From the NCBI GenBank assembly GCA_045599445.1, contig JAZRWB010000030.1, positions 1 through 61,914 of the forward strand: a stretch of DNA of 61,914 nucleotides, given 5' to 3'. Of the stretch, positions 553 to 61,890 are shown piece after piece. The stretch comes from Kiritimatiellia bacterium (GTDB lineage Bacteria > Verrucomicrobiota > Kiritimatiellia > RFP12 > UBA1067). Every line of letters begins with the position of its first letter. Within the stretch, counting starts at the first letter, position 1. The notes beneath the pieces are model-generated. The model had not been told where the DNA came from, searched no databases, and worked only from the letters and a program-made list of their open reading frames with translations. A program made the position numbers and the translations under genes.

Positions 553-699
553 GTTATATAAGAGATTCTATCATGTTATATAGCGCTTGTCAATGCGTCA
601 TATACCGCCCACCAAACCGTAATATAACGCCCAACCAACTGTTATATAACGCTCAACCATCCGTTATATAACGCGCACACAACCGTTATATAACGTTTA
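553..699. repeat. Array of seven palindromic GTTATATAAC-like boxes with exact 22-bp period
   Basis: Cores start at 553 (GTTATATAAG), 575 (GTTATATAGC), 597 (GTCATATACC), 619 (GTAATATAAC), 641, 663 and 685 (GTTATATAAC). The last four full 22-bp units are similar direct repeats, e.g. ACCAACTGTTATATAACGCTCA and ACCATCCGTTATATAACGCGCA. Confidence 0.92.
565..593 (-). promoter_or_regulatory. Sigma70-type promoter of the HU-like gene
   Basis: Minus strand reads TTGACA-17 nt-TAGAAT with an extended -10 TG, 37 nt upstream of the ATG at 527. Confidence 0.8.
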
Positions 700-907: not shown

Positions 908-1639
908 TTAAAACAATTCATACTGCTTAGCAGTTCTTGAACGCTTAATCCGATCACTTCTTGCACCACTGTTTGTTTGCGCCAAATCAACAATCTCTTT
1001 TGGATGATACTTCAAAAACTCTTTCTTATTGGAAAGGGCATCATCCAGCACTCCATTTGCTTGCAACGACAGATAAAGCGCAACTGAATATGCCTGACAG
1101 TTCAATGATCTAACAGGATTAAATTCAATGTCTGTAAAACAGTTGTATTCTTTCAGTTGACAAATCAAATCAGAATTGCGGTGCAAAGCCCTGCAGTAAA
1201 TCCAGTCGTAAAACGCTCGCGTGGGATTCAATTCCCATCTTTCCTCTCCTGTCTGAAAGGCCACAAGCGGCAAACCCATTCCTTTAATTTTTGCTCGTAC
1301 CACAGAAGGATCTTCTCCATACAATTCAGGGAATGGCCCTATTTCACCAGCAAACACCTTGCTCGCCTGAAATACAGATTCTACGCAACAAAACCGTCCC
1401 TTTGACTCAACCCCTAAATTAAATGCACTCAATCGAACACCAATATCATACTTTGATTTACTAGATACTTCCAGAGGGATGAAATCCGGATTCTTCATAC
1501 AAATTGCAGCGTGCAACGCCAAAACGTTCTTCTGCTTCTGCACAAATGCAAATCCTGGATTCCACCGAAAAGGTGCTGAAGTCAAAACTGTTACGCCCAC
1601 GCCATTGACATTAGGGAGAAACACTGGACGAGTTACCAT
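908..1639 (-). CDS. darG1: NADAR-family antitoxin (DarG1; DNA ADP-ribosyl glycohydrolase)
   Basis: Motifs RPVF.P, W.PGF...QKQK, LEVSSKS, LSAFNL, VESVFQASKVF, FYDWIY and FTDIEFNP..S.NCQA match DarT1-associated NADAR proteins. Lies 12 bp downstream of darT1. Confidence 0.9.
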   Translation of the reverse strand: MVTRPVFLPNVNGVGVTVLTSAPFRWNPGFAFVQKQKNVLALHAAICMKNPDFIPLEVSSKSKYDIGVRLSAFNLGVESKGRFCCVESVFQASKVFAGEIGPFPELYGEDPSVVRAKIKGMGLPLVAFQTGEERWELNPTRAFYDWIYCRALHRNSDLICQLKEYNCFTDIEFNPVRSLNCQAYSVALYLSLQANGVLDDALSNKKEFLKYHPKEIVDLAQTNSGARSDRIKRSRTAKQYELF

Positions 1640-1651
1640 AAAGCCATCCTT

Positions 1652-2344
1652 TTACGACATGAAATCCTCATGACAAACACGCACTTGAGGCAACTTCATC
1701 TCTGGGTACTCAATTTGCAATGCTCTCGAAACCATCGCATGATGCTCTTCCGATTCCACAACAATCCCCTGTATGTACTTAACATTAATTTCATCAGGAA
1801 ACATAACTTCAGCCTGTCGATCCGTCGGACAATTATTAGGCACGCCCATCCGAGTTGAAACCCTCCGCCCATACATGTTCCCAACAACTACAGAATCTGC
1901 AAACATCGCCTTCAATGCATCTATACCAATCCCCGTGCCACAATTTCGCACATAAGAGGACGCAGCGTTACCAACGGTAAAGGACACCCCTTCCGCCGCT
2001 AATATCTCTGGCGAAATCTCCAAAATACACCAAATGTCACACTCCGTGAATTTCTTCTTAAAGCTCGTGAACAAATATTGATTAATCCGTTGTATGGATA
2101 AATTAATGCAATCCCGCCTGCCATCTAATCGAAGACCATCATTCCAACGGATATAATCCAATAAGAAAAAATCAGATTTACTTTGCGCAACCGTCTCTAT
2201 TTTTTGCTTTGCCCACAAAGCCCCCATCTCATACACACCAAGCAAATTACAAAACGGGGTGAAATGAACCAATCTTGTGATCCCGCGTTCTTTCACAAAC
2301 GCCTGTATTGCCGCGGCATCCGGCGAAAGCACAAACTCAGCCAT
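1652..2344 (-). CDS. darT1: DarT1-type ssDNA ADP-ribosyltransferase toxin (DUF4433)
   Basis: Motifs R.I..L.HFT...NL, ND..R.DG..D.I.LS, W.ILEI.P, NAAS and PTD.QAE (catalytic Glu) are typical of DarT1. Paired with a NADAR gene. Confidence 0.9.
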   Translation of the reverse strand: MAEFVLSPDAAAIQAFVKERGITRLVHFTPFCNLLGVYEMGALWAKQKIETVAQSKSDFFLLDYIRWNDGLRLDGRRDCINLSIQRINQYLFTSFKKKFTECDIWCILEISPEILAAEGVSFTVGNAASSYVRNCGTGIGIDALKAMFADSVVVGNMYGRRVSTRMGVPNNCPTDRQAEVMFPDEINVKYIQGIVVESEEHHAMVSRALQIEYPEMKLPQVRVCHEDFMS

Positions 2345-3716
2345 TTTCCAAGACCTCCGTCATCAGCGCTGAATCAATCTCCGCCAGCAATGGTGTCGGC
2401 GACATTCCGGGAACAATCGTCAAGGTCTCACAAGCCCTTGTCATCGCCACATAGATCAACTTACGCATTTTTGAAATCTCGTCCGGATCAAGCCCTTTTG
2501 TAGAAAAGACTTGATCATTCATGTCTAAAAGGTAAACGTGATCAAACTGCAACCCTTTGAGAGAATGATATGTGGACGCCGTCACACACGCTTTGCCAAA
2601 ATTGCAAACCTTGATTTTCCGTGCTGATGTGCGCACAGGCACCCCCGCTTTCTCAAAGAATTGCTCAACTTCGGCAACACGTTTGCGACTGTAAACGGCC
2701 ACAACGGTTTTATCATATGAACCAACGCCCTTAATGCGACGTATTACTTCCGCAAGACACCAAGAAGTCGATCCCTTCAACACAATCGGCTTAACTCCTT
2801 CTCTGCTCGAAGGGATCATCTCTGTAAAATCGGTATTGTCTTTCTCGTGGCGCATCAACGAATAAGCAGCCTCGGCAATTTGCCGAGTGTTCCGATAATT
2901 TCGCTTGAACTCAACACTTCGGCCAACGACTTTCAACCCCAAATCAGACCACGAAAACCCACTTTGGTAAATTTGCTGCGCGGAATCTGCAACAATTGTA
3001 ATGCTATTTGTTTCTTCGCTTACCAACTGACGAATCAACGATATCCGTGAGAAGGAGAAGTCTTGGGCTTCATCAATAACCACATGCGAAAATGGCCGGA
3101 CGAACCCTGGCTTTTCCACAATCGCCAGCGCATCCAAGACGCGATCGTCCCAGTCACGCATATGCGATTCAGCCAACTTGCAATTATATGCCTCAAACAA
3201 TTTCCAGAGCAATTCTCTGTCCGCCATCGTAACGCGATCTTCTGTTCCTCGGCCTGTCCGCTTAGTGTTCTTATATTGATCAAGGTTAGAAATACGACGC
3301 CCTTTCAGCCAACTAATTTCCGCACAGTAAAAATCATCATTCTTATTTGCAATCGCCTTATCTCTGACCCCACTAAACGTTATAGCCCTAGCATGCTCAC
3401 GAGCCCGTTTCAACACCCCATCATCGATAAAATCATCCCTTCCCAATTCAAGAAAACGAAAAATCCATCGGTCTAGCCCATGCACGGCTATCTGTTGCCC
3501 TCGGACCATTCCCTCAATCGCAGAGACGAGTTCGTTAGTATATGTAAATATGGCGACGTTGGTCGCTCGAAAAAGATCCGGGTGGTCGGCAAGCAGCATC
3601 TCTGCACGCTTGACGGATACGAGCGTTTTCCCCGAACCCGCGCCACCTTTTATGAGCACAGCCCCATGAATCGGCAGCGTCAATGCGATTTTCTGCTCGC
3701 CAGAAAGCTTTAACAA
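2337..3716 (-). CDS. UvrD/Rep-like SF1 DNA helicase
   Basis: GGAGSGKT (Walker A), FTYTNEL, IDEAQD (Walker B), ADSAQQIY, NYRNT, HSLKGLQFD and YVAMTRA. TTG start with AGGAGG upstream. Overlaps darT1 by 8 bp. Confidence 0.9.
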   Translation of the reverse strand: MLKLSGEQKIALTLPIHGAVLIKGGAGSGKTLVSVKRAEMLLADHPDLFRATNVAIFTYTNELVSAIEGMVRGQQIAVHGLDRWIFRFLELGRDDFIDDGVLKRAREHARAITFSGVRDKAIANKNDDFYCAEISWLKGRRISNLDQYKNTKRTGRGTEDRVTMADRELLWKLFEAYNCKLAESHMRDWDDRVLDALAIVEKPGFVRPFSHVVIDEAQDFSFSRISLIRQLVSEETNSITIVADSAQQIYQSGFSWSDLGLKVVGRSVEFKRNYRNTRQIAEAAYSLMRHEKDNTDFTEMIPSSREGVKPIVLKGSTSWCLAEVIRRIKGVGSYDKTVVAVYSRKRVAEVEQFFEKAGVPVRTSARKIKVCNFGKACVTASTYHSLKGLQFDHVYLLDMNDQVFSTKGLDPDEISKMRKLIYVAMTRACETLTIVPGMSPTPLLAEIDSALMTEVLENG

Positions 3717-3731
3717 CTCGCCTCCTTGAAC

Positions 3732-5762
3732 CTATTCGGCCTCCAACGATGGCAAGCCAAGTTTGTCAAAAAACATCTTATTCCTAAGCATCGCATCGTC
3801 AACTAATCTGTCATATGATATGACTTCAATATATGCGTTATACCCACTATGATACCCATAATATCCCATGCCATCCGGCGTCGGCTGCAAAGAAAACTGT
3901 CTTGCACATTTTTGAACCGAGGACAAGACATCACAAATAACATAGCAATACCCCAGCATATTTTCTGCTTTAGGTATCGGCCGACCATCCACAGTCTTCA
4001 CCTTCCCGCTCCGAATTTCCTCCAAATAATCAACTGCCTGCTGAATTGGATTTTCGCCTGAAGGATCAGCATCATTGCGCATCGGTCGCTTGAACTCCAC
4101 CACCGTTAGTGTTGAAAACGGAGGCGTCTTTCGTTCGGAAACAAACTCTGGCGGCAAATAATCAGAGACATTAAGCGCCAACAGATCAGGTTGTTTTGCC
4201 GATTGAGAATCCGTTATTGGCATCGACGAAAATGTTTTATCTGATCCTAAATAATTATGAAAAGCCAATCGTTCATCAATAACCCACAAATTGCATTCAT
4301 TAATGTGAAGCTGATCTGACGTATGTCCCATCGGCATTATAAGATTATGAATCAAGTCCTCTCGAACGTATTTCCCCGTAGGCTGCTTTTTTATTGCATA
4401 TTTCAATACAGCAAGTACTGCACGGCGATGCGCCACATATGCCGCGAGATCGGACTGTTTCACCTCAACCATCTTCGTAACATATTCTTCAATCTTACGC
4501 TTATACACCTCAGCAGACTCATCAACCTTTGGAGTCATGATCTCATGACCAGCTGTTATAAACTCCTGCTCCAAATCAATAAGCTCTTTGTGCAACAGCA
4601 GATGCAAATCTTTATTTGAAATATCAGGCGAAATCGGACGACCGCGTTTTTCTAGCCGCTTTATAACGGATTTATACTGAGGAGCATCTTTATCGACAAA
4701 ATCCTGTATCCGCTGCTTTGTTTTTGTAATGTTACAAGCTGTTTGACTTGCTAAATGGCGCTCTATCAACTTAAGTGCCGCATCGCGAATTTGTTGCAAC
4801 GTCACCTCGTGTTTGACACTAAACAATTCATCAGAGGATGAATCATCAAAATCAAATTCCGTCCTTTCGGCCCTTACATGTTCATCCAGATAGGGTGATG
4901 AAACATACCCTGTATAGAAAAACTTCCCAGTTTCATCATCCAACTCCCCAAACAACCCCGGAATTGCCCCGTCTAATTTCTCAGAAGACACCTGACGCGT
5001 CCCCGCGCAATAAGATAACGAATGATTTCGTGTAACTGATGATCTCACGCGGATATGAACCAATTCAAAATGTTCTTTCCCAACATCAAACTCTTCCGTC
5101 TTAGGATGTCCTACCATATATCCTTCAAACTCATCATCCAAATCAATTGTGCTATTCTTGTCGCCGATAAGAATCTTCGGAACGCTCCCGGGGCGCAGAA
5201 AATACCACAAACAATGCTCAAGCACTAATCGAGCAATAATATCTGCGCCTTTAGGACAATGCTTCCTATACTTAGCGCGAAATTCCGAAAGAAACACCTC
5301 GGATCCTGCTTGCGCATTTTTGTCCGCGGCACAATCTATTGGATCACTAACACCCCCTCGTTCAGTAAAATCAAATTGCCTACTAATCAATCCCTCCCTC
5401 CCTGAATATACACTTTTTATCTCAACTTTTTCAAAGGCCTTTAACCACAACAACCTACCTACACCACGGCAACCATCGGACGCCTTGAAAACCGAATCCA
5501 ACTCATTGAAAGAATTAAAGTTGTCCTCATTAAAACCAATTCCATTATCAGATATTCTAAATCCAATGATATCTCCCATTGCGTCATCTTCCTGGAGGAT
5601 AGGTTCTCTGATAATTTCTACTTTTATCCGCCCGTTATCCTTCCAATCGGGCATAGCCTCAACAGCCTGAATCGCATTCACAATTGCCTCGTACAGCGGC
5701 AACAAGGCATGTGAGTATGGTAATTTGGTATTTTTGAGCCTGCCAATTAAGTTTGATTTCAT
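3732..5762 (-). CDS. GHKL (MORC/HATPase_c-like) ATPase fused to a C-terminal PD-(D/E)XK-like nuclease
   Basis: N-box EAIVNAIQA, G1 DNGIGF, G2 GCRGVGR, G3 GSEV. C-terminal PDLL...VEFKRP...PIQQAVDY fits PD-EXK with a QxxxY motif. Confidence 0.8.
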   Translation of the reverse strand: MKSNLIGRLKNTKLPYSHALLPLYEAIVNAIQAVEAMPDWKDNGRIKVEIIREPILQEDDAMGDIIGFRISDNGIGFNEDNFNSFNELDSVFKASDGCRGVGRLLWLKAFEKVEIKSVYSGREGLISRQFDFTERGGVSDPIDCAADKNAQAGSEVFLSEFRAKYRKHCPKGADIIARLVLEHCLWYFLRPGSVPKILIGDKNSTIDLDDEFEGYMVGHPKTEEFDVGKEHFELVHIRVRSSVTRNHSLSYCAGTRQVSSEKLDGAIPGLFGELDDETGKFFYTGYVSSPYLDEHVRAERTEFDFDDSSSDELFSVKHEVTLQQIRDAALKLIERHLASQTACNITKTKQRIQDFVDKDAPQYKSVIKRLEKRGRPISPDISNKDLHLLLHKELIDLEQEFITAGHEIMTPKVDESAEVYKRKIEEYVTKMVEVKQSDLAAYVAHRRAVLAVLKYAIKKQPTGKYVREDLIHNLIMPMGHTSDQLHINECNLWVIDERLAFHNYLGSDKTFSSMPITDSQSAKQPDLLALNVSDYLPPEFVSERKTPPFSTLTVVEFKRPMRNDADPSGENPIQQAVDYLEEIRSGKVKTVDGRPIPKAENMLGYCYVICDVLSSVQKCARQFSLQPTPDGMGYYGYHSGYNAYIEVISYDRLVDDAMLRNKMFFDKLGLPSLEAE

Positions 5763-5812
5763 ATCTTTTTAACTTTCTTTCTGTTACTTGATCGTCCCAC
5801 TTGCAACCATAC

Positions 5813-6862
5813 TTACTTCACTATCAAACCAAACCTCTCGTCTACACGCTTAAAGCAAATTGCAGTTTCGCAAAGCCACTTAAACGCCGCCGGCCATTCG
5901 GTCTGGGGTGCGTTGATGTCAAATTCCTTCACGACCGAGAACGCGCCATCCATCTTGGCCATATTCCATTCAACCTTAGAGCCGACAAATTTCTCAATCT
6001 CCTCGCGGCGATCTTGAAACGCCTCAAAAACTTGCTTCGCCTTGCTAACATAGATGCCACAGAGGATATTCCCCTTCTTGGAGGTCACCCGCATGAACAC
6101 ATGATGAGTCGAGTGGTCAATTCCAAAATCGTAATAACAATACTTCCCCGGCTTGCGCAGATTAAACTCAGCCACAAACGCCTCATTCTTCTCCGCATAC
6201 TTGTTAAATGCCGTCCAGAAGGTTAAGATCGCCTTCTGTCGAGCAGACATTGACTTATCCGCACCCTTTTCATGCTTGTCATCATCCTCAAATGGTTTCT
6301 GCCTTTTCCAATCTTCGGTAATCTCACCATCCGAAAGAAGCCGCTGGACCTTCCTAAACACCTCCAACGCCTCCGCAGGACTGATGTTGAAAAACTCACG
6401 TTTAGGACTGATGCGCTTGGCATTAAAGTAATCGTGAATCAGCTCCTCAGTCTCAGAGAACTTGGATGTGCGTAGTGTCGCATAGATGTTAAACTCCTTT
6501 GGCAACGCCGTCGTAAAGAGCTGCTTTGCACGATCCTCAACCGCACCCTGCGTTTTACCGATTTTGACAATGTTCGGCTGAAAGCACGGATGCGTCAAAA
6601 TATAAACGAAACCCTCATTAGACTTTTTTCCTGTTTTGCCACCGCCCGACAATATAAAGTAACCATGCCCCGCCTTTGCAAAACGCGACTTCTCTCCCTG
6701 CTTCTTGATGTCCTCATATATTGATGCACCAACCGAATCCTTAGGCGTTGATCCTCCCGGTTGCCAAAATCCGCGTTCGGTTATTTCCGCCGTCAACTCA
6801 GCGCATTTCATCGGCCTCCTTGCCGACTTTAGTACCTCATATGCCGCATCTAGAATATTCAT
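5813..6862 (-). CDS. HARE-HTH + GIY-YIG (T5orf172) + DUF4268-like three-domain nuclease
   Basis: N-terminal DAAYEVLK...PM...EL...I...G..P..S..ASIY.DI...G..SRF (HARE-HTH). Central GFVYILT.P....VKIGKT...R...L...P..F...E..IH...R.....REFF (T5orf172). C-terminal FW..F...IE...G..VEW...W...F.WL (DUF4268-like). Confidence 0.8.
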   Translation of the reverse strand: MNILDAAYEVLKSARRPMKCAELTAEITERGFWQPGGSTPKDSVGASIYEDIKKQGEKSRFAKAGHGYFILSGGGKTGKKSNEGFVYILTHPCFQPNIVKIGKTQGAVEDRAKQLFTTALPKEFNIYATLRTSKFSETEELIHDYFNAKRISPKREFFNISPAEALEVFRKVQRLLSDGEITEDWKRQKPFEDDDKHEKGADKSMSARQKAILTFWTAFNKYAEKNEAFVAEFNLRKPGKYCYYDFGIDHSTHHVFMRVTSKKGNILCGIYVSKAKQVFEAFQDRREEIEKFVGSKVEWNMAKMDGAFSVVKEFDINAPQTEWPAAFKWLCETAICFKRVDERFGLIVK

Positions 6863-6873
6863 AGCTCCCCCTT

Positions 6874-6987
6874 TTACTCCATCGGTTTGATCATCGACTC
6901 GATGAATGCGATTTCTTCTCGAGTCAGCTTGTGCTTCTTGTACAGCTTCGCCTCATCCCACGGCTCGGAAAAATCCTGCATGGGGAC
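6874..6987 (-). pseudogene. 3' remnant of an Eco57I-type R-M methyltransferase gene
   Basis: Manual translation VPMQDFSEPWDEAKLYKKHKLTREEIAFIESMIKPME* is the characteristic C-terminal tail of Eco57I-domain R-M proteins. It ends 11 bp before the GIY-YIG gene and has no upstream gene body. Confidence 0.75.
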
Positions 6988-7025
6988 TTGCCGAACCCTC
7001 CATCTGTTATGCAACACCCCAACAT

Positions 7026-7853
7026 TCATCCCAACTTCCTCGTTATTAGCTTCTGCTTAATCTGATTGCCGATTATCAAATGATCCAGCACTTCAACCCC
7101 TATTGCCTTGCCGAGCTTCTTCATCACCTCTGTCAGTTGCCGATCCTGAACACTCGGAGTTGAATTCCCACTCGGATGATTGTGGGCAAGGATAATTGAC
7201 TTGGCGTCCAATTTAAGTGCGGCAGCAAACACATCACTCGGCTGGATGGAAGTTGTAGTTGGTTCGCCCAACGAAACAAGGATTGGTTCTGAAAGCGTAC
7301 GATTCTCCAAATCAATTGGCAACACGAAAAGCCCTTCGTTCTTTCCGGCAAGCGGAATCGCCATTTGAAAAATACGCACCGCATCTTCAGCGGTCGCCAC
7401 CTCTGTTCTAACGGTTCGCGCCAGATCATCTGCCATTGTCACTCGCCCCGCCAAAGTCTGAGGCAAATCCCACATACCCATATTTCCGCGGCAAGCGATC
7501 GGCTGATCAAAACAAGCAACCTCTGACAAATCCCACCGATAGCGATAGCCCTCATTCCACAATTCGGCCGCCGCGCTCTCACGACAGGAATAATCAACAC
7601 AGCCGACAATCTTGCCCGGCCAATCGGCGACATCGCTCCACGCCGGAATCATCGCGAACTGATCAGCTGGCAAAGCCCGCGACGCCCACTGAACAAAGTT
7701 CCCGAACTCTTCCTTGCAAAACGATTTGGAACATGACACCGCACATCGCCCTTTTACCGGCGACGGACACATACTACGATTCTCAGCCCGCTTGATTCCG
7801 AGCATGATGAGAATCGCATACGGACCCGTGCACGTAAAGGCGCTGGTAATCAT
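7026..7853 (-). CDS. ASCH-like domain fused to a RadC-like JAB domain
   Basis: N-terminal GPYA.LI..GIK..ENRS...GR..V..S and G.IVG.VD...P.ACRG.MG.W (ASCH). C-terminal E.L.VL...G......P.DVF..A....A..II.AHNHPSG...PS..D...T...G.EVLDHLII (RadC JAB). Confidence 0.8.
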   Translation of the reverse strand: MITSAFTCTGPYAILIMLGIKRAENRSMCPSPVKGRCAVSCSKSFCKEEFGNFVQWASRALPADQFAMIPAWSDVADWPGKIVGCVDYSCRESAAAELWNEGYRYRWDLSEVACFDQPIACRGNMGMWDLPQTLAGRVTMADDLARTVRTEVATAEDAVRIFQMAIPLAGKNEGLFVLPIDLENRTLSEPILVSLGEPTTTSIQPSDVFAAALKLDAKSIILAHNHPSGNSTPSVQDRQLTEVMKKLGKAIGVEVLDHLIIGNQIKQKLITRKLG

Positions 7854-8152
7854 TGAAACTCAACCATCATTTCAAGCGAAGGCTCGTCACCAGAAAAATC
7901 GAGATTGACGGTGCCATACAATTCGCCATCAAGCCACTTAGCGATATTTTCGCAGACAACTTGAATGTCCAACGCAGTCATCAGTTCTCCGAACACAAAT
8001 GACACTCCGGCAAGTTTGCGCCCGTCCTTGTTGTCCCATGCCTTCATTTCAATCAGCGTCAACGAATACTTCTTGCCAAAAACGCGATTGAACAACTTTC
8101 GCTTCTTCAACATCAATTTTTGAAGCTCCACTGTTCGCCGACACCTACTCAT
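7850..8152 (-). CDS. Hypothetical protein (100 aa)
   Basis: ATGA overlaps with both neighbours support a real gene. No motif recognised. Confidence 0.6.
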   Translation of the reverse strand: MSRCRRTVELQKLMLKKRKLFNRVFGKKYSLTLIEMKAWDNKDGRKLAGVSFVFGELMTALDIQVVCENIAKWLDGELYGTVNLDFSGDEPSLEMMVEFQ

Positions 8153-9150
8153 TCTCGTTCATTTTTAAATATTGCACTAAAGTTGTAACGCCATTGCAAG
8201 GCGAAACTCATTCCAATTTTACCTTCTAATGGTTTGTTCATAATGCGTTGCCATACAGATGCACTTGGTGAATGCCAATTTTCGTTCAATGTTCGTGTAA
8301 CCCAATTTTCAGCAGACAGTATAATGCCATCATGAGTCTTGATCGATTGCTGGACACGACACAGCATCTCCTCTGGAATTAACGGTTTGTTCTTCGCTGC
8401 ATATTGCGCATTCTTCCTTGCATAGTCTTTCCGAATGCGACACATCTCATATTCCGCCGGCTTCCTGCCGACCACCACATTCTGCAACAGCTCTATTATT
8501 CTGGCGGCCTCCCAATCACTCTGATTAACATATGCCAAAAAATGAATCGCACGTTTCAACATGCATTCATCATGTCGGACAATTAAAAACTCATGTTTGA
8601 GCGCTTCCGCAAGTGCGCACAAATTTCGATCTGCTATTTCCGATCCACGAAGATAACGTAAATCCTTAATTTGCAACCTCAACCCATGATTTGCGGCCGT
8701 CAGTTTCTTTGTCTTCTGGTAATCAGTCAATAAAATAAGCGCATCATTCTCATTTCCGACAAGGCGTTCATATGCCGAAAAATACGGTTCGCTCGTGCAG
8801 AAGTTCTCCGATGGAGATTTTACCCCCAGCTCAAGTTCTGGGATGTCCACACCTTTAGCCGGGTTGATGTGAAGTTGAATTGATGACTGCAGCACGTACT
8901 TCTCAATGACACATGCCAACAATTTTTCCACGACGCTTCCAATTGTCTTGCCATCTAAATTTGGAAGCGTTTTGTCGTTTGCCAATTGCGCAAACCAACT
9001 TGGCAATTCGCCAGTCGAGTCAATGCGCTGCAGAATTGGCTTAACATCCCCAAGCTCTTCGCCAGACAGAACCTTGTTGAGCCAAGTTTTTATAACATCC
9101 AACTTACTGGAAATCAGTGCGCGATATGCACTCATACACATCCTCCTCAA
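8149..9150 (-). CDS. Putative Type II restriction endonuclease
   Basis: Coupled by an ATGA overlap to a C5-MTase. G...EKLL...GVDIPELELGVKSPS resembles a PD-(D/E)XK core. Specificity unknown. Confidence 0.65.
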   Translation of the reverse strand: MRRMCMSAYRALISSKLDVIKTWLNKVLSGEELGDVKPILQRIDSTGELPSWFAQLANDKTLPNLDGKTIGSVVEKLLACVIEKYVLQSSIQLHINPAKGVDIPELELGVKSPSENFCTSEPYFSAYERLVGNENDALILLTDYQKTKKLTAANHGLRLQIKDLRYLRGSEIADRNLCALAEALKHEFLIVRHDECMLKRAIHFLAYVNQSDWEAARIIELLQNVVVGRKPAEYEMCRIRKDYARKNAQYAAKNKPLIPEEMLCRVQQSIKTHDGIILSAENWVTRTLNENWHSPSASVWQRIMNKPLEGKIGMSFALQWRYNFSAIFKNERE

Positions 9151-10982
9151 TTAAATAACGGAAGCTCGTTTGACTCAAAACGAATCGTTTGTTGCTTGAT
9201 TATCTTTTCTAACGCATACGCAACAATAGACGGCGGAACGGCATTACCATACAATCGATACTGTTCATACACGCTTACTGCCCGGCAATGATTATCAGGA
9301 AAACCTTGAAGTCGCGCATATTCAACATTTGTCAATCTCCTGAACTTTCCATCAATTCCATACCGCTCATAATGTCGACTTGATGAAGCCGTCAGCGTTG
9401 GCGACAGCCCATCTGTTCCAAAGATAGTGTATCCCATTCTTGCACCTCCAGACTGATTGTAGAGAATACGAACTCCATTGTAAAATTTATTTACAAATTG
9501 ACTTTTTTTGATTCGTTCCAATGTATCCGCTGTAAAATCGAATTCAGGCGGCACATCCTTCTGCAAAATATCATGCAGGATTCTTTCCCGTTGAATCCCG
9601 CGTAATGGCTGAAAATCATAAGTGACACACCTTCCATTGAGCGCCAAGCCCCACTGCTGGAACTTACCATTTGCCGATGATATGTCATTCCAAAATCTTA
9701 ATTGAGCAACATCCTCACGCTTCTTAATCGGCATTGCATTAATTTCCGCCTTGGTCACAAAATACGAATCCGTATCCTTCGCTTCGCGACTACCACATAT
9801 GATAACACGCAAACGCTGCTGCGGCAGTCCAAAAGCCGCGGCATTAAACACCCGCCACTCTATCTTGTACCCAAGTTCTGATAAAGCAAACAGAATTGTC
9901 CTAAAATTACGTCCATTGTCTAAAAACAACAAGCTGTTTACGTTCTCAAGAACAAAATAACGCGGAATGTTTTTCTTCAGGATCTTCACAATGGTTTCAA
10001 ACAAAGTGCCACGATAATCATCAATTCCCATCTTCTTCCCGGCACGAGAAAAAGGCTGACATGGGAATCCGCCGGTAAGAATGTCGTGCTGTGGTATCTG
10101 ATCAACTAAATTGTTTATATCTCCCAAAACGATAGAGTCTTCCCCAAAACGATCTCTATACACTTTGACTGCACTTTCGTTTATGTCATTCGCCCAAATT
10201 GTCTTAATGCCAAGAGCATCACACGCAAGACGAAAACCTCCAATACCCGCAAAAAGCTCTACCGCCGTCAAACTTCTTGAACCCCCGGTTGGTTCTTCAA
10301 GCTCGACTGCTTCATTGACAGACTGATTTGAACCAGAAAAAACAGCTGGAATTATTACAACACCTGAAAGTCCTGCAACCGTAGTTTCGATCATCTCACG
10401 TCGTGAAATTTTACTAACACACCTCTCTGTGGATGGTTCATCACCCGCTTCGCACACGCGCAATACCTCGGGTGGAAGCTTAGACAGCAACGGCGGCAGA
10501 TAATTCGCCAATAACGGATCCTTGCGATCAGGCGAAGACAAATAGTCGCGAAGCTTCTTTTGCACCGACTTCGATGTTGCGAAGTCCTGCAGACGGACGA
10601 TCACCTTCTCAGCAAGTCCTGAAGCGGGACTGTAAACCCTTGTCTTGCTCGTGGCGTAAAGAATGTAGTTACCCGTGCCATGTGGTTTTCCCTTCGCCGG
10701 ATAACCAAATTCGGACTTCAACTCTTTTCTTGTTTTGAATCCGACAAACTTCGCCCTAAGGCATACTGGCTCTTTTTTCGCATTGAAAAGCCAAATTTCA
10801 TTCACCCGCTTTGCAAACTCGGGTTCAATCTTGTCACCGTCACAAATCGGATAGTTGTAAAAACCGGGCCACTTCTCCAACTGGCCAGATTTGTACGTAC
10901 CGACAAGCACAACCTTCTTTGCTTTTGTCGCAACCTTTTTTGGTGCGACCTTGTGCTTCTTGGATTTCATTACCTTTGCCAT
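9147..10982 (-). CDS. DNA (cytosine-5)-methyltransferase with an extra N-terminal region of about 235 aa
   Basis: Motif I ELFAGIGG, IV GFPCQPFS, VI LENV, VIII PQQRLRV, IX ARLQGFP, X LYGNAV. Confidence 0.93.
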   Translation of the reverse strand: MAKVMKSKKHKVAPKKVATKAKKVVLVGTYKSGQLEKWPGFYNYPICDGDKIEPEFAKRVNEIWLFNAKKEPVCLRAKFVGFKTRKELKSEFGYPAKGKPHGTGNYILYATSKTRVYSPASGLAEKVIVRLQDFATSKSVQKKLRDYLSSPDRKDPLLANYLPPLLSKLPPEVLRVCEAGDEPSTERCVSKISRREMIETTVAGLSGVVIIPAVFSGSNQSVNEAVELEEPTGGSRSLTAVELFAGIGGFRLACDALGIKTIWANDINESAVKVYRDRFGEDSIVLGDINNLVDQIPQHDILTGGFPCQPFSRAGKKMGIDDYRGTLFETIVKILKKNIPRYFVLENVNSLLFLDNGRNFRTILFALSELGYKIEWRVFNAAAFGLPQQRLRVIICGSREAKDTDSYFVTKAEINAMPIKKREDVAQLRFWNDISSANGKFQQWGLALNGRCVTYDFQPLRGIQRERILHDILQKDVPPEFDFTADTLERIKKSQFVNKFYNGVRILYNQSGGARMGYTIFGTDGLSPTLTASSSRHYERYGIDGKFRRLTNVEYARLQGFPDNHCRAVSVYEQYRLYGNAVPPSIVAYALEKIIKQQTIRFESNELPLFN

Positions 10983-28035: not shown

Positions 28036-28112
28036 TGGTGGGACCGGGGAGAATCGAACTCCCAACCTCAAGTTTAGGAAACTCGCGCTCTGTCCAGTTG
28101 AGCTACGATCCC
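28036..28112 (-). tRNA. tRNA-Arg (anticodon CCT)
   Basis: GGGATCGTAGCTCAACTGGACAGAGCGCGAGTTTCCTAAACTTGAGGTTGGGAGTTCGATTCTCCCCGGTCCCACCA: 77-nt cloverleaf with TTCGA T-loop and encoded CCA. Confidence 0.96.
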
Positions 28113-28117
28113 GAAAA

Positions 28118-30622
28118 TCACTTCTTGGCCTTGACGCCGATGTCGGAGAGCTTCATCGAGATGACTCTCGAAACGCCCTTTTCCTGCTGCGAAACGCCGT
28201 AGACGAGATCGCTGCCCGCAATCGTGTGCTGGTTGTGGGTAATGATCAGGAACTGCGATTGCGCGAGAAATTCCTTGAGCTGTTCGACGAAGCGACCGAT
28301 GTTCGCGTCGTCGAGCGCCGCGTCCAGCTCGTCCAACATGCAGAACGGCGCGGGCTTGATCATGAAAATCGAGAAAAGCAGCGCCACCGCGGTCATCGTG
28401 CGTTCGCCGCCCGAAAGCAGCGTCACCGACTGCGGACGCTTGCCCGGAGGACGGGCGATGATGTCGATTCCGCATTCGAGCGGGTCTTCCTCGTTCTCCA
28501 AGAGGACGAGTCGCGCCTCGCCGCCGCCGAAAAGCCGCGTGAACATCGCCTGGAAGTTCTTGTTCGCCTGCTCGAACGTCGTCTTGAACATGTCGCCAGA
28601 AGTCGAATTCAGGTTGTTGATGAGCTCCAGAAGCTGGGCCTTGGCGGCGAGCAAATCCTCTTCCTGCGCCTTCTCGCGAGCATAGCGTTCCTCGAGCTCC
28701 TGGCACTCCTCGATCGCGACCATGTTGACCGGTCCGAGCTCGGCGATCTCCGCCTGCAACCGTCCGACCGTGACCTCCAGCTCCTCCATCGGCGGCACCA
28801 CGCCCTTCTTCCACTCGGGATCCGGCTCGCGCATCACGGCATCGGCGAAAAGCCCGTATTCGTCCTGCAAATGCTCGTAGACGTTCTGACGGCGCATCGT
28901 CGCCTCGGTCGCCTGGACTTCGAGTTTGCCGCGGAAATCCTTCGCCTGATCGAGCGCGCCGCGCTTCTCCGCGACTTGCTGGTCGGCGGCGGTAATCCGC
29001 TCGAGCATCGCCGCGCGCTTGCCGCGCTCGTCGTTGATGAGATCGACGTAGCTCGACGCCTTCGCCTTCAATTCGTCGAGCTGCGCCATCAAATCGCCCG
29101 ATTCCTCGGTCAGCTTCGCGATCGACTCCTCGTAGCCCCTGACCATCGCCTCGCGACCTTCGATCGCGCGCTCCAGTTCTTCGCGCCGCTGACGGGCGAT
29201 TTCGTTCTGCTGGCCGACGAAGGAAAGCTCCTGTTCCATCTGGCTCGTCGTGATGCGCCGCTCGGTGAGCCGCTGGGAAAGCGTCATCGAATCCGCCTCC
29301 AGCTTGCGCAGCTCCTCTTCGACGCCGCCAATCTCCGCCATCAGTATCTCGCGTCGATCCGCGGTCGTAACCGAAGTTCCGGCCTTCCAAATTTCGGTCT
29401 TGCCGTCGCGCTCGACCTCGCTATCCTTGACGAGATGCCCGGTAAGCGTGGTATTGGCGACCTCGTTGCGCTTAACGGAAACCTCTTCGCGCTTCGCGTC
29501 GATCTTCGATTGGGCGTCGGCGAAAATCGCCTCGCTCTCGGCGAGCGCCAATTTGGCGGCGGCGAGCGAATCGGTCAAAAGCTTCGTCTTCTGCTCCAGC
29601 GACTCCGCCTGCATGCGAACTTCCTCGAGCGTGCGCCGCGACCCCTCCATCTCCGCGGAATCGCGCTGAACGAACGAGCGATATTCCTCGACCCGCGTCG
29701 CGTTCACCCCGATAACCTCGCGCGCACGGCCGTAGGCGCCCTCGGCGGCGGCCTGCTCGGAAGCGAGCGTCTGCAAGCGCTCTTCGAGCTCGTGAATCGC
29801 CGAATGCATCTCCTGGGCCTCGCGCTCCGCCGCCGTAACCGTCTCCTGTGCCTCGCCAATCGCCTTGTCGATTTCGTTGCGGTTTACCGCGTTCTGCTCG
29901 AGCTCCTGATCGAAGGCGTGGATTTTCTGTTTGGAAACGTAGATGTCGATTCCGCGCAACTGGTCGCGCAGCTCCTTGTACTTCTTCGCCTTTCCGACCT
30001 GACGCTGCAAGGAGCCGATTTGGCGCTTCATTTCCCGAAGGACGTCGGCTTCGCGCAAGAGGTTCTGTTCGGTCTGCTCGATCTTCCGAAGCGCTTCCTT
30101 GCGATCGGCCTTGAACTTCATGATTCCGGCCGCTTCCTCGAAGATGCCGCGCCGATCCTCGGGCTTGGACGAAAGAATCGCGTCGATCTGGCCCTGCGCC
30201 ATCACCGAGTAGGAGGAAGTTCCGATGCCGGTGTTCATGAAGAGGCGTTGCACGTCCTTCAACCGACAGGCCTGCTTGTTGATGAAGTACTCGCCCGAGC
30301 CGTCGCGATAGACGCGGCGGGTAATCGTCACTTCGTGATAGTCGGTTCCCAGTTCCTTTTCGCAATCGTCGAAGGTAATGGACACCTCCGCGAGACCGAG
30401 TGGCTTGCGCGTGTCCGTACCGTTGAATACGACATCGGCGAGCTTGGAACAACGTAGCGCGGTCGGGCGCTGTTCGCCGAGCACCCAGCGAATCGCGTCG
30501 GAAACGTTCGATTTTCCGCAGCCGTTGGGCCCGACGATGGCGATTAGACCGGGGTCGAAGCTGAGCCGCGTCTTGTCGGCGAAGCTCTTGAAGCCAGAAA
30601 TGTTAAGCTCTTTTAAATACAT
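28118..30622 (-). CDS. smc: Chromosome segregation protein SMC, unusually short (834 aa)
   Basis: GFKSFAD, GPNGCGKSN, DAIRWVLGE, QGQID, FEEAAGI; C-terminal GPVN..AIEE, LLSGGE, LDELDAALDDAN, ITH. No canonical hinge visible. Confidence 0.92.
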   Translation of the reverse strand: MYLKELNISGFKSFADKTRLSFDPGLIAIVGPNGCGKSNVSDAIRWVLGEQRPTALRCSKLADVVFNGTDTRKPLGLAEVSITFDDCEKELGTDYHEVTITRRVYRDGSGEYFINKQACRLKDVQRLFMNTGIGTSSYSVMAQGQIDAILSSKPEDRRGIFEEAAGIMKFKADRKEALRKIEQTEQNLLREADVLREMKRQIGSLQRQVGKAKKYKELRDQLRGIDIYVSKQKIHAFDQELEQNAVNRNEIDKAIGEAQETVTAAEREAQEMHSAIHELEERLQTLASEQAAAEGAYGRAREVIGVNATRVEEYRSFVQRDSAEMEGSRRTLEEVRMQAESLEQKTKLLTDSLAAAKLALAESEAIFADAQSKIDAKREEVSVKRNEVANTTLTGHLVKDSEVERDGKTEIWKAGTSVTTADRREILMAEIGGVEEELRKLEADSMTLSQRLTERRITTSQMEQELSFVGQQNEIARQRREELERAIEGREAMVRGYEESIAKLTEESGDLMAQLDELKAKASSYVDLINDERGKRAAMLERITAADQQVAEKRGALDQAKDFRGKLEVQATEATMRRQNVYEHLQDEYGLFADAVMREPDPEWKKGVVPPMEELEVTVGRLQAEIAELGPVNMVAIEECQELEERYAREKAQEEDLLAAKAQLLELINNLNSTSGDMFKTTFEQANKNFQAMFTRLFGGGEARLVLLENEEDPLECGIDIIARPPGKRPQSVTLLSGGERTMTAVALLFSIFMIKPAPFCMLDELDAALDDANIGRFVEQLKEFLAQSQFLIITHNQHTIAGSDLVYGVSQQEKGVSRVISMKLSDIGVKAKK

Positions 30623-51204: not shown

Positions 51205-51822
51205 CTATGCGAACTTGACGAACTTACGCACTGCTTCGCCAATCTTTGCCTTAATTTCCTCCCATTTCACTGGAACGAACATTTTGGGCATAGGATCGTC
51301 TTCCGCATCGTCAAAATACGTAAGACCACGAAGGGCGAACGAAATCTCCGAAACCGCAAACTTGCGTTTGTACAAATTAAACATCTCCAAAAGCGAATAA
51401 CGGTTCAGCAAAAACGCAATATCAATGAAGTCTTTTTTCTTTCCGCGATTGGCAACCGCGGAAAGTTTCATTGCGGCAATATCATCGCTTCCGGCAAGAA
51501 CGACCCCGCTTTCAGCAACCGGGCTCGAAATCCACGGATACTGATAATTGACCAAATCCACCTTGATATCATCGACGAGTAACGATTGAACCTCGCCACT
51601 TTCGACGCCTTCCACCCGGTGACCAAGTTCCGATAAGATTTTGCGAAATGACTGCTTACCGTCGAAATTACCAAATAAGTCAATATCCACCGAGGCACGA
51701 TGACCCATTTGCAACGCCAAAGCAGTTCCACCGACAAGCCGCATATCCTTCAATTCGGAATGCGCTTGCAGCGTTTTCAGTAAATCCAAGGTGCTTGTGA
51801 GGACTGTTTCGCAGTGTAGCAT
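51205..51822 (-). CDS. AbiEii/AbiGii-like nucleotidyltransferase toxin
   Basis: LVGGTALALQ.GHR.S.DIDLF, IAAMKL.A...RG.KKDF.D, L.YFDDAE.DPMP. Start trimmed to MLHCETV. Confidence 0.88.
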   Translation of the reverse strand: MLHCETVLTSTLDLLKTLQAHSELKDMRLVGGTALALQMGHRASVDIDLFGNFDGKQSFRKILSELGHRVEGVESGEVQSLLVDDIKVDLVNYQYPWISSPVAESGVVLAGSDDIAAMKLSAVANRGKKKDFIDIAFLLNRYSLLEMFNLYKRKFAVSEISFALRGLTYFDDAEDDPMPKMFVPVKWEEIKAKIGEAVRKFVKFA

Positions 51823-52061
51823 CGGAAGCTTTCCTTGGGAAGATTGGCAATACAAGCAATAAACGACAGCGCTTTCGGCTCCAAAGTTCGCAAATTCCTG
51901 GCAACCTCGACGATAACCTTCGCGCCATAATACTCGAAGGCAACCCGCAAATCCGCAAACGCCCCGCGCTCCAGTACGCGCTGAATCACATACTTTTTAT
52001 TGGCGTCGAAATCCAACTGTTCGGGATCGGCGTCCCAAAATAGATTAGGCGAATACCCCAT
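51777..52061 (-). CDS. DUF6922-like small partner/antitoxin protein
   Basis: S..LFWD.....LD...K.YVI.RVLERG...D......YYG; overlaps the toxin gene. Start trimmed to MGYSPN. Confidence 0.8.
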   Translation of the reverse strand: MGYSPNLFWDADPEQLDFDANKKYVIQRVLERGAFADLRVAFEYYGAKVIVEVARNLRTLEPKALSFIACIANLPKESFRCYTAKQSSQAPWIY

Positions 52062-52067
52062 ACCGAT

Positions 52068-52076
52068 ATTATACCA
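52068..52076 (-). promoter_or_regulatory. Extended -10 promoter (TGGTATAAT), leaderless TA operon
   Basis: 6 nt before the ATG at 52061. Confidence 0.65.
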
Positions 52077-52099
52077 ATTCCCATTCACTGCGGTCAATC

Positions 52100-52400
52100 C
52101 GCCGCTATCTGCGAAATAATAGCTCAAAGACCCTCGCGCGGACCCTTGCGGGCGGCTTCGCCGTTGCCTTCGGCAATCTACCCTCCAAAAGCTTCGCTTT
52201 CTGCGGCGCATCCCCAATTCCGGCGCAAACAAGAAACGCATCCGTGCGACGCACGGCACACGCGCCTCCATTAGGTACCCGAAACGACATATTCGTCCCT
52301 CCGCTCCGCACTGGGCGCTCGGCACTCGGCTTCGCCTCGGCTTTCCGCTCACTTACGTTCGCCCCTCAAAACAAGTTTTTCGGCGGCTACAACGCGCAAA
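52100..52400. other. Intergenic cluster of short hairpins (structured ssDNA or RNA element)
   Basis: CCCTTGCGGG 52143, CGGCTTCGCCG 52153, TTGCCTTCGGCAA 52164, AAAGCTTCGCTTT 52188, CCGTGCGACGCACGG 52242, GGCTTCGCC 52328, CGGCTTTCCG 52338, AAAACAAGTTTT 52368. Confidence 0.65.
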
Positions 52401-52466
52401 GGGATTCCCGAAGCGACTTGTCGACTTCTCGTTCCTCGCTGGGCAAAAGTTATCAACATTTTTCCA

Positions 52467-52940
52467 TCAATGGGGTCGGACCTTACTGCGACCTACCTTA
52501 GTCTGCGTCCTAACCTTTCTTCTCGGCATATCCACCGCTCTCCCATGCCGAATATCGTACTCGTCCGCCCTACTCTTAATCGCCCGACACATCGCGGCGA
52601 TTGCCACGCCGACGATAAGGATTACGCTTTCTATCGCCAGCGATAATAAGAAGATTCCCACGGTCGGCCGATCCGCCCTCAATACGATCAGCAAAACGGC
52701 ATTCAGCGCAAAGAGCAATAAAAGCACAATCTGAATCTTGTGGCTGTTCTGCTTCAGCCCGGCCATGCACTTATCGTCAAACTCCACCGCCGCCTCAAAA
52801 TTGCACGCCTTGCAAATCATCACCCACGCCGAATGTATGCCCTTAGCTATGAGTACTATCAGCTCGTAGATGATCCCGAAAAAGATCATCCACAGTATCC
52901 ACGATACTACCGAATCCCACGCTCCTTTGTCTTTACTCAT
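52467..52940 (-). CDS. Hypothetical membrane protein (about 3 TM)
   Basis: Three hydrophobic stretches and a basic C-terminal tail; ATG lies 10 bp after the helicase stop. Confidence 0.6.
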   Translation of the reverse strand: MSKDKGAWDSVVSWILWMIFFGIIYELIVLIAKGIHSAWVMICKACNFEAAVEFDDKCMAGLKQNSHKIQIVLLLLFALNAVLLIVLRADRPTVGIFLLSLAIESVILIVGVAIAAMCRAIKSRADEYDIRHGRAVDMPRRKVRTQTKVGRSKVRPH

Positions 52941-52950
52941 AAATCTTTTA

Positions 52951-55900: not shown

Positions 55901-56355
55901 TACTTCTTGTTGCCAACCTGACTCTCGTCCATCCCGAAGATATAGAGTTTGGCATGATTGGGATTGCGGGTTTTGCGGATATCCAGCCGCTTGCTCTTAA
56001 GCAAATCGACGAATATCTTAACTCGCTCGTGAAACGCTTGATTATCTACCGCCGGAGAACCCATAATTTTCTTCATCGACTCGTAAAAGCGCTCTTGCAC
56101 CGCCTCTTGCGAATCGCTACCGCCTTTTGCAATTATCTCAACCAATTGCCCGACGGCAAACTCCGCATCCATTCCAACAAGCACCCGCATCTTTAAGTTA
56201 GGACGGTCTCGCAAAGCCTCAGCTAAAACCTTAACGCCGGAGAAATAGAAAAACCCGACAAGCATATCCAACTGGTCGGCATGTGAAATCAGCTCCGTCA
56301 GCCGCTTCGCTAGCGTTGTTGAACCTTCCTTATTCTGATTGGTTATAAATGCCAT
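52951..56355 (-). CDS. PLD (HKD) nuclease-SNF2-like helicase fusion
   Basis: LVGFFYFSG, HAKLYIF...GSSNFS..GL...ELN (PLD); IIADVVGLGKS, VDEAHNFR, LLTATPFNN, RRNR, KVIVFS, LSEGFNL, NYDIPWNPTR.IQR.GRINRIG. Confidence 0.9.
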   Translation of the reverse strand: MAFITNQNKEGSTTLAKRLTELISHADQLDMLVGFFYFSGVKVLAEALRDRPNLKMRVLVGMDAEFAVGQLVEIIAKGGSDSQEAVQERFYESMKKIMGSPAVDNQAFHERVKIFVDLLKSKRLDIRKTRNPNHAKLYIFGMDESQVGNKKYWITGSSNFSEPGLSLRDELNVQIGDFGQEEAQKYFDDLWETAIPLTADDDSRERLIKILMECSVAAEITPFEAYYMVLQNYLEYQRAQLKELQVERILRDAGFIKYRYQVDAVAQAMTRLDAYKGVIIADVVGLGKSIIGGLLGAIRSKRGLIVCPPGLMGEPNGAAGGWYEYLNKFKLHDWEVWSRGKLDELTEKLKRDPDFDMVIVDEAHNFRSERTEDYGLLANICFGREVVLLTATPFNNRPSDLLALLHLFSPGKQSPFVVGGELDERFRFFMQRYENILKLNKAIAKLDYGAIGKLLKGCGIDPLSCNCGRDVEKAKKRAAEASRKLTKQIRQIMEKIVIRRNRLDLMSDPDYKTEIKTLAKVQDPKEQFFELSAEQDKFYDKVIKDYFGPGGAFYGAIYHPQAYLKDKEGTDEAQENLYHMLRSKLVQRFESSFGAFKMSIKSVKRSLELSLKFIDKMSTFLYSRRAMEKILNIDDYEDALVEMFSAIKEQQEMYVKKGVKVKNAIFYNLNDKNFDGKGFREDIVSDIELMDKILGEIDELQLEAKDPKASRLVKVIKDVLSDSHKDIPIEGNSPKRKVIVFSSFRDTIVHIRKWVEKAFPNKALVVTGDNFGKEMALSVKSNFDASFETQDDDYDILLTTDKLSEGFNLNRAGLVINYDIPWNPTRVIQRVGRINRIGKKVFDRLYIFNFFPTVKGSTIVANRTIAENKMFAIHQILGEDAKIFSVDEEPTPAGLYSKVTSFGEDEEMGAYTAAKIEYLKCKALLEKNHPEILERIGKFPNNVKTAMERSPHATYMFRRQGPGFFALVNWKNQATIEELALEDALKDIKCTWDEPRVDFSEEFWKYATQEEGKPKGVYEALKQYKPKGMQLSKSTIGDSVLAINVLNKYKGSLSVLLRKFAMDVADDIQNYGTIPVYTVRRIAQIDNNVKAIDDAVEELSDILQDVKAIRGDDYLSLVRRRLDAESIVVTIEAR

Positions 56356-56477
56356 AGTTTTATCTCCAGCAAATGACAGGCAAATAGAAAACCGCTTAAT
56401 TTATCCATATATTCGAATATTATACGCAATTATTGCATTTTCCCTGTAATCTCAGCAAATGGCGGGCAAATTAATCA

Positions 56478-57929: not shown

Positions 57930-57947
57930 GCTTCAACCTCGCTTTAG

Positions 57948-57956
57948 ATTATATCA
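57948..57956 (-). promoter_or_regulatory. Extended -10 element (TGATATAAT) for the AlbA_2 gene
   Basis: 18 nt before the ATG at 57929, with GAGG RBS in between. Confidence 0.55.
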
Positions 57957-57971
57957 ATTTTTGCGGTCGCA

Positions 57972-61736: not shown

Positions 61737-61890
61737 TAACAACCTTCAAGCGTATGTTTTGACGTTTGGCCTTAAATGAATGCGGTCAAGGGTGGGCTTT
61801 TCGCGGGACTTTTGCGAACCCGTAGGATCGACTCCCATCTACTTCGCCAGTTCTATGGCCTATGTGGCTCCCCTCGCGGAGAACGCATGT

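Follow-up and report, generated by a model that had tools for sequence, protein, structure and literature searches.

What are seven evenly spaced palindromes doing over the promoter of a gene for an HU-like protein, and what kind of protein might read them? The question is posed by one end of contig JAZRWB010000030.1, of which we analysed a stretch of 61,914 nt (hereafter the 61.9-kb window, or the window) that appears to belong to a Kiritimatiellia chromosome. The array in question (552–695) consists of seven 22-bp units, each made of a 10–12-bp palindromic box and a 10–12-bp spacer, and it lies directly upstream of an HU-HIG-type gene on the minus strand, whose first 175 codons occupy 3–527 and which continues beyond the window start (its relatives are 235 amino acids long). 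Homologous arrays are found at two further loci, L015 and L050, both in Kiritimatiellia metagenome-assembled genomes (MAGs). We consider it moderately probable, from the sequence evidence set out below, that these boxes together serve as a conserved operator array, at which a putative dimeric, sequence-specific protein would repress a strong promoter.

Anatomy of the array and its promoter

The boxes are of the GTTATATAAC type and start at 553, 575, 597, 619, 641, 663 and 685, always exactly 22 bp from start to start. In a pattern search that allowed up to two mismatches, they deviate from GTTATATAAC at 1, 1, 2, 1, 0, 0 and 0 positions, respectively, going from the box at 553 to that at 685. 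With +1 taken at ~558, the most distal box 7 (685–694, centre ~−131 from the predicted start) and box 6 (663–672, centre ~−109) are perfect and extend to 12-bp palindromes (684–695 and 662–673), and box 5 (641–650, centre ~−87) is a perfect 10-bp core. Box 4 (619–628, centre ~−65) carries one mismatch, a variant common to all three genomes, and box 3 (597–606, centre ~−43) carries two and is identical in the three, while box 2 (575–584, centre ~−21) and box 1 (553–562, centre ~+1) carry one each. The spacers are rich in A and C when read on the plus strand (in G and T on the strand of the gene), and the distal ones are alike. The region around has 60% GC, and nowhere in it is the AT content higher than in the array (GC 39.5% for 528–699).

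Tandem Repeats Finder (TRF) reports the stretch 596–695 as a repeat of period 22 with 4.5 copies, 83% matches, 0% indels and a score of 123, the sole period-22 row among 34 rows for the window, and a separate repeat search returns five copies in register at a spacing of 22. Across the whole window, 19 matches to GTTATATAAC with at most two mismatches are found, compared with 8.85 ± 2.79 in 100 shuffles, of which none reaches 19 (largest count 15). All 12 matches outside the array carry two mismatches, none with one or fewer occurring in the rest of the window, and the array is therefore unique in the 61.9 kb. A search of Rfam with positions 1–1200 gave one chance-level match only (E 0.91).

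A scan of the minus strand for sigma-70 promoters finds TTGACA (593–588), a 17-nt spacer and TAGAAT (570–565), which together match at 11 of 12 positions. The −10 element is of the extended kind (565–573), with TG at 573–572 and one base before the hexamer, and both this hexamer and the −35 hexamer (588–593) are invariant in the window, L015 and L050. As read from the sequence, a Shine-Dalgarno motif, AGGAGGG, lies at 531–537 on the same strand, 3 nt before the ATG at 527–525. Box 1 lies over the predicted transcription start (~557–559), box 2 falls within the spacer between −35 and −10, and box 3 stops 3 bp upstream of −35, so that boxes occupy the start site, the spacer and the flank of −35, as is characteristic of operators. 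The boxes thus cover what is predicted to be a strong, near-consensus sigma-70 promoter of the HU-HIG-type gene.

An earlier reading of this DNA, made from its letters alone (the sequence-only reading), had described seven palindromes at an exact 22-bp period covering a promoter, with three perfect distal copies, one copy in the −35/−10 spacer and one over the likely +1. The number and period of the boxes are confirmed by the sequence itself, the pattern search, TRF and the repeat search, and its other statements agree with the mismatch counts, the promoter scan and the positions of the boxes at 575 and 553. Two further statements hold in part. The degeneracy of the proximal copies had been tied to their overlap with the promoter; a gradient from perfect distal to degenerate proximal boxes does exist, yet the boxes at 619 and 597 are degenerate without overlapping a hexamer. 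The boxes had also been placed on one face of the DNA, which is true of neighbouring boxes but not array-wide: a 22-bp step at 10.5 bp per turn adds ~34 degrees, amounting to ~206 degrees over the six intervals.

Conservation of the array and the operator reading

A scan of 185,579 species-representative genomes for two perfect boxes 22 bp apart returned 53 loci, two of which, L015 and L050, are homologous to the window. By blastn, L015 1948–2160 matches window 746–535 (88% identity over 213 bp), L050 1971–2212 matches window 724–483 (88% identity over 242 bp) and L050 2200–2258 matches window 67–9 (90% identity); beyond these three segments, blastn finds nothing shared between the window and the two loci. 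The homology takes in a conserved leader beyond the distal box (696–746), which extends to 746 in the comparison with L015 and to 724 in that with L050; the farther flanks are unrelated, and the flanking genes differ on both sides among the three loci. Each of the three arrays has seven units, their −35 and −10 elements do not differ, and units 3 and 4 deviate in the same unusual way in all of them. Orthologous units share a mean identity of 0.89 (n = 21), and paralogous units within the arrays one of 0.59 (n = 63; 76% for units 4–7). Variable columns make up 5 of 70 in the box cores, 18 of 70 in the spacers and 0 of 12 in the promoter hexamers (Fisher p = 0.005). Judged by these comparisons, the array behaves as an old and fixed one with its boxes under constraint, that is, as a selected protein-binding element.

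These figures also speak to readings in which no protein has shaped the array. Copy-number drift of the kind shown by a variable-number tandem repeat (VNTR), which the sequence-only reading had named as a result that would tell against its own proposal, is not seen: fixed unit number (seven in three of three homologous arrays), 89% identity between orthologous units and conservation of cores over spacers reject a drifting VNTR. It is hardly probable, too, that the array lacks a dedicated binder and works through DNA mechanics, serves as a nucleation patch for a general AT-preferring nucleoid protein or is a neutral tandem duplication. Its AT-richness and the flexibility of TpA steps would suit such an element, and the spacers resemble each other, which suggests that the array arose by tandem duplication. 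However, the G/C-flanked cores of the palindromes exceed the spacers 3.6-fold in conservation, each of the seven units has kept its own identity in all three copies, the 22-bp register is exact, with 0% indels, and a near-consensus promoter needs no upstream activating bend.

Palindromic 10–12-bp boxes suit a two-fold symmetric binder. In the operator reading, we infer that such a protein binds the boxes, that it does so cooperatively and that the effect is repressive. Dimers would first occupy the three perfect distal palindromes (~−131, −109 and −87), and dimer–dimer contacts two helical turns apart would then help to fill the weaker boxes (~−65, −43, −21 and +1). The weak sites at −43, −21 and +1, which flank or overlap −35, the spacer and the start site, would be filled last, and we propose that their filling excludes RNA polymerase. 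The array would in this way act as a concentration-dependent off-switch on an otherwise strong promoter. The binder may be the gene product itself or a protein encoded elsewhere in the module, beyond the window; a host factor is a third candidate.

Together, array, promoter and gene appear to constitute an old unit whose GC content resembles that of the host (57.7% for the gene vs 59.6% for the host; the adjoining island has 45%), situated at unrelated chromosomal places in the three genomes. What is left of this unit differs among them: the window has the array and the gene, L050 has the array and a gene remnant in which codons 1–15 are joined to codons 155–173 at a short microhomology (2168–2258), and L015 has the array only, with nothing of the gene left after the start codon. 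The L050 remnant stops less than 8 nt or so from what corresponds to the first position of the window, and the window start may be a contig end brought about by variability in the Ig-like domain. In both L015 and L050 the next downstream open reading frame (ORF) is oriented the same way as the promoter, which is compatible with promoter capture or with recent decay, although two cases prove nothing.

A module that occupies unrelated chromosomal positions in three genomes, and whose flanks on either side are unrelated too, might be taken for a mobile element, the boxes being recombinase or transposase sites at its end, akin to arm-type sites or multi-site transposon ends, and the HU-like gene encoding an accessory factor. 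HU/IHF-type proteins act as integration accessory factors (PMC5499826, section 10), and the module adjoins a low-GC defence island in the window. We nevertheless regard this reading as highly improbable. The upstream homology stops at window position 746 for L015 and at 724 for L050, with no common sharp end; neither the 48 window ORFs nor, at L015 and L050, the ORFs scanned up to ~900 bp from the array include an integrase or transposase; and a search of the rest of the window for repeats matching 600–950 gave nothing above chance. Moreover, the palindromic boxes centre on a promoter, and in GC content the gene resembles its host and not the island.

Several observations weigh against the operator reading itself. 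Just three copies of the array are at hand, related and not independent, and their preservation is partly a matter of ascertainment, because the loci were found by requiring two perfect boxes. The two array copies from the species-representative genomes have been kept although no intact gene accompanies them, so that a pure autoregulatory switch would be left there with nothing to regulate. The ~206-degree phase drift makes a flat single contact face impossible over the full array length. The scan of 600 bp for promoter-like sites gave one site, compared with 1.0 ± 1.1 in shuffles, so that it is the quality of the match and its conservation that carry the promoter call. Lastly, none of eight Bacteroidota HU-HIG genes has a repeat of at least three copies in the 400 bp upstream, one of them having a two-copy 21-bp repeat there; the eight, all distant relatives, comprise the gene at L038, another of the 53 loci, and seven from plasmid-labelled records.

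The HU-HIG-type product as a candidate binder

The translated part of the gene (ORF 3–527) scores 25.3 bits on the Pfam family HU-DNA_bdg (PF14848), under the curated cut-off of 30, and the scores of the gene product and its relatives span 20.2–25.4 bits; DUF4469 (PF14734) is weakly matched in three of four close relatives (E 0.026–0.085). These four (P0001–P0004), returned by a word-indexed search, are 73–88% identical to the product, all 235 amino acids long and composed of an HU-like domain and an Ig-like C-terminal domain. An exhaustive profile search extends the family to 176 clusters at E ≤1e-3, with 11 at ≤1e-30, and look-alike clusters in the protein atlas bear the same Pfam families. 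An AlphaFold2 model of P0001, built on a 35-sequence alignment, has a predicted local distance difference test score (pLDDT) of 91.9, and the only PDB matches to this model at E ≤0.001 are the four chains of 4FMR (241–245 columns). The best of them (E 4.6e-13) runs over 244 columns, the full length, at 16% identity and a template modelling (TM) score of only 0.43, which points to a domain orientation different from that of 4FMR. 4FMR is a Bacteroides HU-HIG protein with a C-terminal Ig domain, a homodimer according to a figure legend in PMC5499826. At the level of the modelled fold, which like that of 4FMR combines an HU-like part bearing an N-terminal hairpin with a C-terminal Ig-like domain, the product is thus HU-HIG-type, with scores that stay below the Pfam curated cut-offs for membership.

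A peptide pattern derived from a 14-sequence alignment gave 39 matches in the 185,579 species representatives, none of them a relative by tblastn, so that this single pattern found no intact close relative of the gene there; tblastn of P0001 against phages and plasmids gave nothing, no PADLOC model matches the HU-HIG-like protein, and a literature search for the term 'DUF4469' returned no match. As portrayed in the passages on them in PMC5499826 and bioRxiv 10.1101/2024.06.24.600358, the HU-HIG proteins, a clade of the HU/IHF superfamily, are a large, fast-evolving family, for which these passages give no demonstrated function or target.

Could this protein be the binder, as the sequence-only reading had suggested? 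In that case, the HU-HIG-like protein would, as a dimer, bind the palindromes, spread from the perfect boxes and shut its own promoter, a proposal that we find possible though doubtful. Its gene alone is known to accompany the array: array, promoter and gene start are common to the window and L050, L015 retains the start codon region, and no other conserved gene lies upstream at any of the three loci. A portable operator requires its regulator close by. The HU-like half is basic in all eight relatives examined (pI 9.3–9.8), and 4FMR, the closest structure, is the homodimer mentioned above.

Set against these points, the beta-arm segment has a net charge of only −1 to +1, i.e., no net positive charge, and we know of no HU-fold dimers that read 10–12-bp palindromes. 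The boxes are well kept in L015 and L050 although the gene is gone, and the eight Bacteroidota HU-HIG genes lack an upstream array. Another regulator in the module is possible as well, the DNA downstream of the gene falling outside the window. In addition, Burroughs et al. 2017 (PMC5499826) argue in section 10 that DNA binding via the clasp is improbable for HU-HIG proteins fused to Ig domains and that the clade is unlikely to include sequence-specific transcription factors. The suggestion of the sequence-only reading that the HU-like product occupies the boxes has accordingly lost ground, and it appears unlikely that an Ig-fused HU-HIG-like protein is a sequence-specific binder that spreads cooperatively along seven palindromes.

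The array gives the HU-HIG family a concrete test, namely, of the ability of an HU-fold protein with an Ig fusion to recognize DNA sequence. If the protein does bind, the boxes would be the first cognate DNA site for the HU-HIG clade, contradicting the 2017 prediction of no specific binding, and array, promoter and gene would make up a portable, self-contained and self-limiting cassette beside a defence island. If it does not bind, the array can serve as bait for the real regulator.

Genomic setting, other uses of the box and known systems

The surroundings of the array are chromosomal. A core of ~60% GC from 11.5 to 51 kb encodes, according to Pfam searches with 48 window ORFs, PolA, DnaE, EF-G, SMC and aromatic amino-acid genes, and none of these ORFs has a Rep, ParA, ParB, integrase or transposase domain. 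Within the core, the SMC-like ORF (28118–30622) is only 834 amino acids long and adjoins tRNA-Arg(CCT) (28036–28112), and it is overlapped by long ORFs on the same strand (28074–29390 and 29472–30452). Two low-GC defence islands, at 908–10982 and 51205–61742, flank the core. The first, with 45% GC, lies directly upstream of the array and holds genes for an NADAR-type DarT1 antitoxin (908–1639), DarT (1652–2344), a GajB-like UvrD helicase (2337–3716), a weakly matched GHKL-type ATPase (3732–5762), a HARE-HTH/T5orf172/DUF4268 protein (5813–6862), RadC (7026–7853), a possible type II endonuclease (8149–9150) and a Dcm methylase (9147–10982). The second holds AbiEii (51205–51855), DUF6922 (51777–52352), a protein with PLD and SNF2 helicase domains resembling DrmD (52951–56355), a Schlafen/AlbA protein (56478–57929) and a type IIG restriction-methylase-like protein (57972–61742).

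The same pair of boxes recurs beside several different groups of genes among the 53 loci, as judged by Pfam searches with 182 of the 186 ORFs chosen near box pairs (four ORFs of L030 that duplicate those of L029 were left out). At 14 Bacillaceae loci, with two more that have the permease only, an IclR regulator and an L-lactate permease flank the boxes (L006, L008–L010, L012, L014, L016, L018, L021, L032, L033, L040, L051 and L052, with pairs at 2001–2032), and here the pair is probably the operator of the IclR-family regulator. Three Psychrobacter loci (L004, 56–131; L019, 2001–2076; L037, 2001–2076) have, immediately before genes for Rep_3 initiators, four perfect units of 22 bp that contain the identical 10-bp core, and these are textbook iterons of Rep_3 plasmids. 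At six loci from Paludibacter-type MAGs (L027, L029, L030, L038, L039 and L044, with pairs at 2001–2032 and, in L029, also at 3332–3363), the neighbours are OmpR-type response-regulator or histidine-kinase genes; several copies of the pair per genome lie upstream of two-component genes, which suggests a family of autoregulated two-component systems. The remaining loci have scattered flanking genes. In one of them, from a Limisphaerales MAG (L046, 2001–2044), four abutting 11-bp units on the same 11-mer lie between a WS/DGAT gene and one for a GNAT acetyltransferase, which are 40 bp apart, immediately ahead of the ribosome-binding site of the latter.

A profile of the HU-HIG family run against the six-frame ORFs of the 53 loci has its sole match at L038, where a bona fide HU-HIG gene lies ~500 bp from the box pair; given this distance, and since the pair belongs to the two-component group, we judge the link coincidental. 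The sequence-only reading had asked whether phased arrays always precede HU-HIG homologues; phased boxes of this sequence do not, and, in the other direction, none of the eight Bacteroidota HU-HIG genes has an array. Phased boxes of this type appear to act as protein-binding sites in other systems; however, the same box at the same 22-bp spacing is found at iterons, at IclR operators and at two-component genes, and the box consequently does not identify its binder. For genome scans, the caution follows that box sequence and phasing alone do not reveal function. Among the matches listed in a literature search for the 10-mer there was no bacterial operator, as far as titles and the opening lines of abstracts tell.

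How, then, does the array compare with the systems that it resembles? A 22-bp period is typical of iterons, and the likeness to such repeats, already remarked in the sequence-only reading, was borne out at the Psychrobacter loci, which share with the window the identical 10-bp core, the 22-bp period and at least four units directly upstream of a gene start. Where iterons call for at least three direct repeats of ~17–22 bp at a period of ~22 bp, the window has seven units at exactly 22 bp. We still hold it very unlikely that the array is an iteron-type replication origin or the relic of one, derived from an integrated plasmid-like element. The Psychrobacter iterons are identical over all 22 bp and adjoin Rep_3, whereas the window units share their cores only (59% mean identity, 76% for units 4–7), with proximal units degenerate within the promoter of a non-Rep gene and no initiator, DnaA box or plasmid context. 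The 48 ORFs scanned include neither a gene for a Rep protein or helicase loader nor any plasmid gene; the setting, with PolA, DnaE, EF-G and SMC, is chromosomal; no DnaA box with at most one mismatch to the consensus occurs in 1–1500; no AT-rich unwinding stretch stands beside the array, the flank at 700–759 being 35–40% AT; and blastn of the array against plasmids and phages gave no match. The cumulative GC skew is monotonic across the window, without inflection, and a chromosomal origin is rejected on this ground and on the absence of a DnaA box in 1–1500. The resemblance to iterons appears real but does not establish membership, and it would be far-fetched to see in a chromosomal array with iteron core and period a decoy or sensor for invading replicons.

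Partition sites offer a second comparison. ParR/parC of R1 and pSK41 and the omega heptads of pSM19035 are arrays read cooperatively by small dimers with graded repression, and a repeat array over the promoter of the adjacent operon is their layout. The window array likewise overlaps the promoter of the adjacent gene and, by analogy, could be seen as a set of tandem short repeats on and around it. Even so, there is only a slim chance that it doubles as an operator and as a centromere-like site for partition, whether of the ParR/parC or the omega type. Those arrays consist of 7–11-bp direct or inverted repeats, compared with 22-bp units with a palindromic core in the window. The promoter here drives an HU-HIG-like gene and not a ParM or ParA nucleoside triphosphatase (NTPase) or a ribbon-helix-helix adaptor, neither a partition NTPase nor a ribbon-helix-helix gene is visible in the window, no ParA, ParB or ParM domain occurs in the 48 ORFs scanned, the setting is chromosomal and tblastn searches with the protein gave no match in plasmids or phages. 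The alternative offered by the sequence-only reading, an origin or partition relic, finds no support, with no Rep, ParA, ParB or integrase in the 48 ORFs, no DnaA box in 1–1500 and no GC-skew inflection.

The two-site operators of IclR and two-component genes resemble the array in having two perfect copies of the same 10-mer, 22 bp apart, beside regulator genes. They differ in that there are only two boxes, the flanking genes are unrelated and there is no homology outside the boxes; these pairs appear to be convergent uses of a simple AT-rich palindrome and not relatives of the array. As for the HU-HIG clade, the gene product is like its members in matching 4FMR, and the gene, as they are described in PMC5499826, stands alone, without a conserved operon partner. 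It is unlike them in its sub-cut-off Pfam score (25.3 vs 30 bits) and its 16% identity to 4FMR, in a setting that appears to be Kiritimatiellia where the clade's is Bacteroidota, and in its cis-element, none being described for the clade in the passages of PMC5499826 devoted to it and none being present at the eight Bacteroidota genes examined. In kind, the array belongs with the phased operator or iteron-like arrays already known over promoters; what is new, as far as the compared sequences tell, is the link of such an array, with seven palindromic units and conserved as a unit, to an HU-HIG-type gene in an apparent Kiritimatiellia chromosome.

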